Both the position numbers and the translations under genes were made by a program. Shown here piece after piece: positions 5,038 through 5,069 of a DNA stretch of 15,304 nucleotides. This DNA comes from a virus (Duplodnaviria > Heunggongvirae > Uroviricota > Caudoviricetes). The stretch is taken from IMG/VR virus record IMGVR_UViG_638341087_000005; one strand, 5' to 3'. The number at the start of each line of letters is the position of its first letter. Positions within the stretch are counted from its first letter, which is position 1. The notes beneath the pieces are model-generated. The model saw only the letters and a list, made by a program, of their open reading frames with translations, made no database searches and was not told the origin of the DNA.

Positions 5038-5069
5038 ACAAAAACAACAGGCACCCCGGAGAGTGCCTG
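5038..5069 (-). terminator. candidate attenuator/terminator hairpin upstream of J
   Basis: On the minus strand: CAGGCAC (5048-5054) - 8-nt loop - GTGCCTG (5063-5069), followed by UUGUUUUUGU (complement of 5038-5047). Located about 40 nt upstream of the J GTG start. Confidence 0.35.

Follow-up and report, generated by a model that had tools for sequence, protein, structure and literature searches.

A lambda-like late operon is a single transcript of about 25-27 kb, and polymerase modified by lambda Q reads through intrinsic terminators across the whole of it. What role could a terminator-shaped hairpin have on the coding strand of such an operon, between the tail genes I and J? The hairpin in question lies in the 15,304-nt stretch of DNA analysed here (the window), where the late genes for head and tail of an E. 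coli prophage related to lambda are read on the minus strand. An initial annotation had proposed that it could attenuate transcription into J, setting the I:J ratio, or mark the 3' end of a processed transcript, and had considered its pairing with a second terminator on the opposite strand unusual inside a late operon.

The hairpin and its setting

The I-J spacer is 244 nt long, compared with 60 nt in lambda, and is 100% identical to its counterpart in NZ_CP180607.1, where the annotated order is tail assembly protein, host specificity protein J and Ail/Lom. The identities of the genes are backed by Pfam. N bases occur at 34 sites of the window (for example 5721, 5729, 8909-8911 and 9479), two of them within gene I and none in the I-J spacer. 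The features that frame and make up the hairpin are as follows.

14645-14992, minus strand: gene D (Pfam)
13559-14587, minus strand: gene E (Pfam)
13133-13555, minus strand: gene FI (Pfam)
5241-5822, minus strand: gene I (Pfam)
5243-5241, minus strand: stop codon TAA of I, the upstream limit of the I-J spacer (sequence, RefSeq annotation, Pfam)
5070-5061, minus strand: 5' arm of the hairpin, GCAGGCACTC (sequence)
5060-5057, minus strand: hairpin loop, TCCG (sequence)
5056-5047, minus strand: 3' arm of the hairpin, GGGTGCCTGT (sequence)
5046-5038, minus strand: U-rich tract directly 3' of the stem, UGUUUUUGU (sequence)
5009-5001, minus strand: Shine-Dalgarno-like sequence of J, GAAGGGGGA (sequence)
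4996-4994, minus strand: start codon GTG of J, as also annotated by RefSeq in the identical prophage
1604-4996, minus strand: gene J (Pfam J domains)
938-1537, minus strand: gene for Lom (Pfam)

The inverted repeat first described is exact in its letters and coordinates: on the minus strand, CAGGCAC (5069-5063) is separated by 8 nt from GTGCCTG (5054-5048), which runs into UUGUUUUUGU (5047-5038). Extended to its full length, the stem has 10 bp, including six G-C and two G-U pairs, under a 4-nt loop, and seven U fall within the 10 nt past the core stem. Both the hairpin and its U-tract are on the strand that encodes I and J. The distances from the ends of the U-tract and of the stem to the GTG at 4996 are 41 nt, close to the 40 nt originally estimated, and 50 nt, respectively. 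RNAfold gave the 46-nt context (5030-5075, minus strand) a minimum free energy of -19.1 kcal/mol, which none of 200 dinucleotide shuffles equalled (z = -3.87), and the hairpin alone reached -18.1 kcal/mol, far under the -8 kcal/mol that the initial annotation had set as the limit for a weak structure. The GC-rich, stable stem-loop is directly followed on its 3' side by a U-rich tract on the transcribed strand; on the plus strand the same inverted repeat runs into CAUCAUGA, so it has the shape of a terminator on one strand only. By sequence criteria, the hairpin qualifies as an intrinsic terminator, and RNA would be released at its U-tract. A Rfam search of the whole window returned nothing at gathering score, and a weak Hrs1 match was ruled out on score.

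Similar structures stand elsewhere in the operon. A scan of the whole window places its strongest minus-strand terminator-like hairpins in the following gaps.

14637-14616, minus strand: hairpin in the D-E gap
13551-13531, minus strand: hairpin in the E-FI gap
5070-5047, minus strand: hairpin in the I-J gap
1586-1567, minus strand: hairpin in the J-lom gap
911-890, minus strand: hairpin in the gap after lom

Lambda has hairpins at E-FI, J-lom and after lom (7163-7180, 18920-18935 and 19612-19633), together with a weaker one at I-J. With terminator-like hairpins filling four more gaps here, and equivalents in lambda, a coding-strand element of this type is not unusual inside a late operon. Like the window's hairpin, the E-FI, J-lom and post-lom hairpins and the tR' of lambda and Stx phages combine a GC-rich stem-loop with a U-tract on the transcribed strand, and they share with it a position in an intergenic gap of an operon run by a terminator-resistant (Q- or N-antiterminated) polymerase. 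The window's hairpin scores approximately 12-21 on a combined tail-and-stem measure (d-score; formula after d'Aubenton-Carafa 1990), compared with 24 for both the Stx1 phage tR', whose 3' end has been mapped by Term-seq, and the operon's own J-lom hairpin. Its energy and tail score are comparable to those of the mapped Stx1 tR'. The two elements differ in their surroundings: tR' adjoins the promoter and yields a stable small RNA, whereas the window's hairpin is away from the promoter and is not known to give a stable small RNA. Considered alone, the window's hairpin is a commonplace terminator-like structure in an intergenic gap, of a familiar kind; the more useful outcomes of the analysis are a corrected anatomy of the spacer and its link to PasB/EcOnc22.

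An antisense small-RNA gene in the I-J spacer

The second terminator of the spacer, placed at 5210-5233 by the initial annotation, is indeed present on the plus strand. It is preceded there by a promoter, and together they delimit a gene of their own.

5108-5135, plus strand: sigma-70-like promoter, TTCACA, 16 nt, AATAAT (sequence, promoter scan, alignment)
5142-5233, plus strand: PasB/EcOnc22-family antisense small-RNA gene with a predicted start at about 5142 (promoter and terminator, alignment)
5210-5225 (stem) and 5227-5233 (U7), plus strand: small-RNA terminator (sequence)

The predicted RNA is about 92 nt long; the position equivalent to the annotated 5' end of PasB is approximately 5158. 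PasB of EPEC E2348/69 is an 83-nt, Hfq-dependent RNA (1466343-1466261, minus strand) encoded between I and J of prophage PP6 (published Table S6), and in uninduced EPEC its baseMean of 482-1082 far exceeds those of I (about 5) and J (about 15). EcOnc22, EcOnc23 and EcOnc24 come from prophages Sp15, Sp14 and Sp11 of the Sakai strain (Tree 2014, Tables S1B and S2); these RNAs run at about 85 nt on northern blots and are destabilised without Hfq (Tree 2014). Alignment of the plus-strand unit of the window with PasB and EcOnc22-24 shows a common -10 element, a common core (AAAAATAACTCCNTAACGTTAATCTT) and a common terminator (CCCGCA...TGCGGGATTTTTTT). Its AATAAT aligns with the -10 of the Sakai copies, and PasB of E2348/69 has TATAAT at that position. 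All 26 small-RNA variants that we collected share the terminator stem, and the probe used for the PasB northern blot is a coding-strand copy of this terminator. Being homologous to the Sp11, Sp14 and Sp15 copies and antisense between I and J, the window's unit belongs to this family. The gene is absent from Rfam, and the RefSeq records that we inspected have no ncRNA feature at its position.

Published Hfq-CRAC reads from the spacer are mostly on the antisense strand. In the Sakai J-I spacers, approximately 21,000-33,000 reads are antisense to I and J, compared with about 90-390 on the I/J strand (Tree 2014). The peak coordinates in that study refer to NC_002695.1, and we calibrated their offset to NC_002695.2 at +135 nt, using the published PR' start of StxS1 and the tR' end; AgvB1 gives +137 to +146 nt. 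With this offset applied, the peaks cover the body of the antisense unit immediately ahead of its terminator and extend into the latter. Uncorrected EcOnc22 coordinates read on NC_002695.2 would place the peak antisense to the hairpin, an assignment that the calibration rules out. The Sp10 locus L006 served solely for calibrating coordinates between the two Sakai genome versions; at 428-682 it contains the convergent pair of Tree 2014, in which STnc100 on the plus strand (145.8 bits) meets AgvB on the minus strand (96.5 bits) end to end.

PasB and EcOnc22-24 occupy the same I-J spacer as the hairpin, which is nonetheless a separate element: it lies outside their transcribed unit, on the opposite strand and upstream of the promoter at 5108-5135. 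The spacer is thus better described as the insertion of a PasB/EcOnc22-family module beside an older J-linked hairpin than as a pair of opposed terminators, and the contrast that had seemed unusual disappears with the recognition that the plus-strand terminator ends a separate gene.

Several other named small RNAs were considered and rejected. AgvB and AsxR are located in the PR' moron site and not between I and J, PasD and STnc100 are located near Q, and HnrS corresponds to EcOnc10-12 and not to EcOnc22. As a separate observation, the 5' GCGTTAA of the small RNA seems to pair with an internal TTAACG, and a TACAG/CTGTG pairing occurs in other variants.

Conservation of the hairpin at I-J junctions

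To obtain a sample blind to the hairpin, we gathered I-J junctions by homology to protein I alone. With the I proteins of the window, of lambda and of a Rahnella type as queries, this yielded 247 loci with 129 unique spacers; a contig search with protein I found just 13 loci. A coding-strand hairpin with a T-run stands on the J side of the I-J spacer in the window and in most of the 129 unique junctions. A strict hairpin-plus-U criterion was passed by 69 of 114 unique regions upstream of J, compared with none of 545 coding windows of equal length and one of 570 shuffles, and lambda-type spacers missed it solely on their T count. The stems fall into at least 12 unrelated families with 28 distinct inner helices, from E. 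coli, lambda, Enterobacter, Rahnella and Pantoea types. In distant tails, whose I proteins are 34-46% identical, unrelated stems (AAAGGTGC, AACCCGC, AGGCCACC, GGCTGCC, AACCCAGC and others) are each followed by T5-T7 and then by ATGGGTGAAATATG, which ends in the start codon of J. At the I-J junction, structure and position are kept and sequence is not. Cross-class consensus folding with MAFFT and RNAalifold predicted zero pairs, as the unrelated stems are misaligned, and we relied instead on per-sequence folding with controls. Because the helices are defined by folding, the 100% pairing found across classes is true by construction, and we discounted it as evidence.

Within the window's own spacer class, 99% of cells are paired across 10 variants. 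There is one compensatory double change from C-G to U-A, along with one mismatched intermediate, and E2348/69 carries an additional variant in the loop. A small ORF starting at ATG 5074 was a candidate that we rejected: it has no Shine-Dalgarno sequence, its length and C-terminus vary in every variant, and its two paired substitutions, C to T and G to A, are non-synonymous (Pro to Ser and Val to Met). Changes that alter the peptide and yet keep the stem fit RNA pairing and not a conserved peptide. All variants of the class also keep the U-tract (TGTTTTTGT, CGTTTTTGG, TGTTTTCTGG). The distance from this tract to the ribosome-binding site of J is 40-60 nt in the 240-nt class and about 100 nt in the 342-nt class, and its retention so far from the site favors termination over a translation enhancer. 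In short spacers, where the T-run abuts the Shine-Dalgarno sequence, a translational role is inseparable.

Lambda itself provides the comparison that the initial annotation had suggested, and a weaker hairpin is found at the equivalent place.

NC_001416, about 15465-15490, coding strand: lambda I-J hairpin, GAAACCGCC-TGCG-GGCGGTTT followed by TGTCATTT (sequence)

It shares with the window's hairpin the junction, the strand, the J-side position and a similar loop motif (TGCG and TCCG, respectively). The two differ in stem sequence and in stability (-13 kcal/mol in lambda compared with -18 kcal/mol), the window's having the longer stem and the better U-tract, and hairpins of the lambda type lie 16-20 nt from J compared with 41-50 nt in the window. 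With its interrupted U-tract (UUUUGUCAUUU) and negative d-score, the lambda hairpin may be a poor terminator. A lambda-like I-J hairpin is probably the ancestral element, upstream of which the small-RNA module was inserted. The lambda record NC_001416 carries no annotation of the hairpin, and our literature search found no paper describing an I-J terminator in lambda or its relatives. A read-through terminator before J would be widely kept in lambda-like phages, including lambda, and apparently unannotated.

Close relatives of the window's I have spacers of three classes.

Class a, about 240-260 nt: small-RNA module and the window's hairpin
Class b, about 342 nt: small-RNA module and, beside J, a different module that carries the hairpin CCCCGGTATC-TGCT-GATACCGGGG followed by TTTCTGTTT
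Class c, 851 nt: small-RNA module and an antisense sodC gene, with no coding-strand terminator

Additionally, a relative of the window's I from E. ruysiae has a lambda-like spacer of 60 nt. In about 30% of the close relatives, an antisense gene for Cu/Zn superoxide dismutase (sodC) stands between the small-RNA module and J and replaces the hairpin module (L017, L021-L023, L034, L037 and others, with 851-nt spacers). We take the I-J junction to be a mosaic insertion hot spot for antisense cargo such as the small RNA or sodC, a property that matters for annotating the prophages of pathogenic E. coli. The initial annotation had regarded absence of the hairpin from close relatives with normal J expression as evidence against a role; the sodC class supplies part of this, as it has no such hairpin and still carries J. 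The hairpin is therefore not required for carrying the J gene. Per-sequence folding also found no hairpin at a few Rahnella-type or decayed junctions and, together with the sodC class, these indicate that the hairpin is probably dispensable. Where spacers of 420-766 nt hold extra genes between I and J, the hairpin is still found 14-19 nt before J; since it remains beside J despite the inserted genes, it belongs to the J side.

A number of minor features were seen around these junctions. The extra gene in the 420-766-nt spacers (L014, L015 and Rahnella-type loci) is on the same strand as I and J and encodes, for example, a predicted lipoprotein beginning MKKYGLVLFGVLFISGC. The 40-50 nt segment from the hairpin to J differs almost completely among otherwise similar spacers. 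In four loci (L032, L051, L070, of the Sakai type, and L067), the stretch from the hairpin to the ribosome-binding site of J contains a varying number of copies of a 7-nt unit, CAGACAT, L067 having two extra copies. A small hairpin, GTCCG-GCAG-CGGAC (5013-5026, minus strand), lies just 5' of the J Shine-Dalgarno sequence and is restricted to the window's spacer variant and its nearest relatives.

The architecture extends beyond I-J junctions. A 15-mer from the distant junctions, TTTTTATGGGTGAAA, has 124 sites in IMG/VR, and most of them consist of a hairpin, a T-run, a ribosome-binding site and an ATG ahead of assorted tail genes. We read this combination of hairpin, T-run and ribosome-binding site as a generic cassette of phage late operons. 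Among the IMG/VR loci L102-L221, the 15-mer, with a GC-rich hairpin before it and an ATG after it, precedes tape-measure-, M-, L- and J-like genes in unrelated phage contigs.

A proposed barrier to polymerase without Q

That the mRNA strand carries a stable, conserved, terminator-shaped hairpin makes a role in transcription or at an RNA 3' end reasonable, as the initial annotation had held. The analysis establishes its structure, U-tract, strand and position, that it is conserved and that it is separate from the small RNA; that it terminates, which polymerases it stops and what the prophage gains are inferred. We lean, with moderate confidence, toward a Rho-independent terminator on the 5' flank of J that stops polymerase without Q and lets the Q-modified form pass in lytic growth. 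It would be this prophage's version of the stem-loop and U-tract that lambda-like tail operons keep upstream of J. In the lysogen, stray transcription of the tail operon would be stopped at the hairpin, and so would any divergent transcription from the PasB-family promoter, which is constitutive and 40-90 bp upstream. In either case the RNA would fold into the hairpin and come off at the U-tract, preventing run-on into J, lom and the tail-fibre genes. In lytic growth, polymerase loaded with Q at PR' would pass both this hairpin and the other intercistronic hairpins of the operon.

The position of the hairpin, between the small-RNA promoter and J, suits such a function. A -10-like AATTAT (5136-5131, minus strand) overlaps the -10 of the small RNA on the other strand; with a small-RNA promoter active in lysogens, the spacer contains a concrete source of unwanted transcription toward J. 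The near silence of I and J beside abundant PasB in EPEC is compatible with the model without proving it. If the model is right, the hairpin offers a simple, testable case of late-operon insulation in the prophage state. A likely secondary effect is that the hairpin acts as a barrier to 3' exonucleases; once the long message of J has been cleaved, the late mRNA upstream of the hairpin (Z to I) would thereby be stabilised.

This second effect might instead be the primary one. As an element of RNA stability or processing, the hairpin would block exonucleases or mark a processed end, letting the I-proximal and J parts of the mRNA decay independently with negligible termination. The hairpins found at a number of gene boundaries, both here and in lambda, agree with this, as do the weak U-tracts of lambda and of the L042 type (CGUUUUUGG) and the fact that polymerase is Q-modified whenever the operon is expressed. 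Such an element has no need of a U-tract, however, and nearly all stem families keep one, even far from the ribosome-binding site of J. We consider it possible but unlikely that stability is the main function.

It is improbable that the hairpin is a partial attenuator that lowers J relative to I in lytic growth, as first proposed. Its terminator shape, its place exactly between I and J and its conservation at that junction are what such a device would need, but Q-modified polymerase is resistant to terminators throughout the late operon. The virion needs J, and there is no obvious logic in keeping J below the assembly factor I; the sodC-class relatives, moreover, manage without the hairpin.

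We also considered whether the hairpin ends an RNA of its own, about 85 nt long, which would start near 5124 from the AATTAT at 5136-5131 and form the divergent partner of the PasB-family RNA. The overlap of -10 hexamers on opposite strands would accommodate such a pair, and a few hundred minus-strand Hfq-CRAC reads exist in the Sakai spacers, yet these are about 1% of the plus-strand reads, the promoter scan gives no minus-strand promoter and the -35 region reads CAAAAA. The minus strand at 5119-5038, spanning a 5' stretch and the hairpin, weakly matches STnc100 (RF02076; 21.7 bits, E = 0.012). This score is far under the gathering value of 47, 127 model positions are missing and the true STnc100 of Sakai Sp10 reaches 145.8 bits, so we rejected this identity. 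In the part of the EPEC RIL-seq tables that was searched, no I-J intergenic RNA is listed. Lambda and other short spacers keep the hairpin with no room for such a gene, and we regard its existence here as quite improbable.

We give a similarly low probability to the hairpin and the PasB-family RNA acting as one module that gates the host-range protein J. Immediately upstream of the hairpin, the late mRNA has perfect complementarity to the small RNA, which is abundant. If the two did work together, pairing of the small RNA could alter termination or lead RNase III to cut between I and J, and in a polylysogen any lambda-like tail operon with the same spacer, whether leaky or superinfecting, would be silenced. 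A DNA-level site, whether a palindrome regulating the small-RNA promoter (its centre is about 84 bp upstream of the start) or a recombination linker at I-J, is the least credible reading and very improbable: the junction is indeed mosaic, with four classes of spacer, and a symmetric C/G to T/A change would preserve a palindrome too, but in other phages the unrelated stems at this place are always GC-rich and always have a T-run after them on just one of the strands, as expected of an RNA terminator and not of a specific binding site, and lambda and short spacers have the hairpin without the small-RNA promoter.

The promoter-like sequence of the small RNA, TTCACA-16 nt-AATAAT, also occurs antisense inside J, approximately 2,350 nt from the start of the gene, both in the window (2625-2652, plus strand) and in lambda (17882-17855, minus strand), where it may reflect conserved coding sequence or an antisense promoter.
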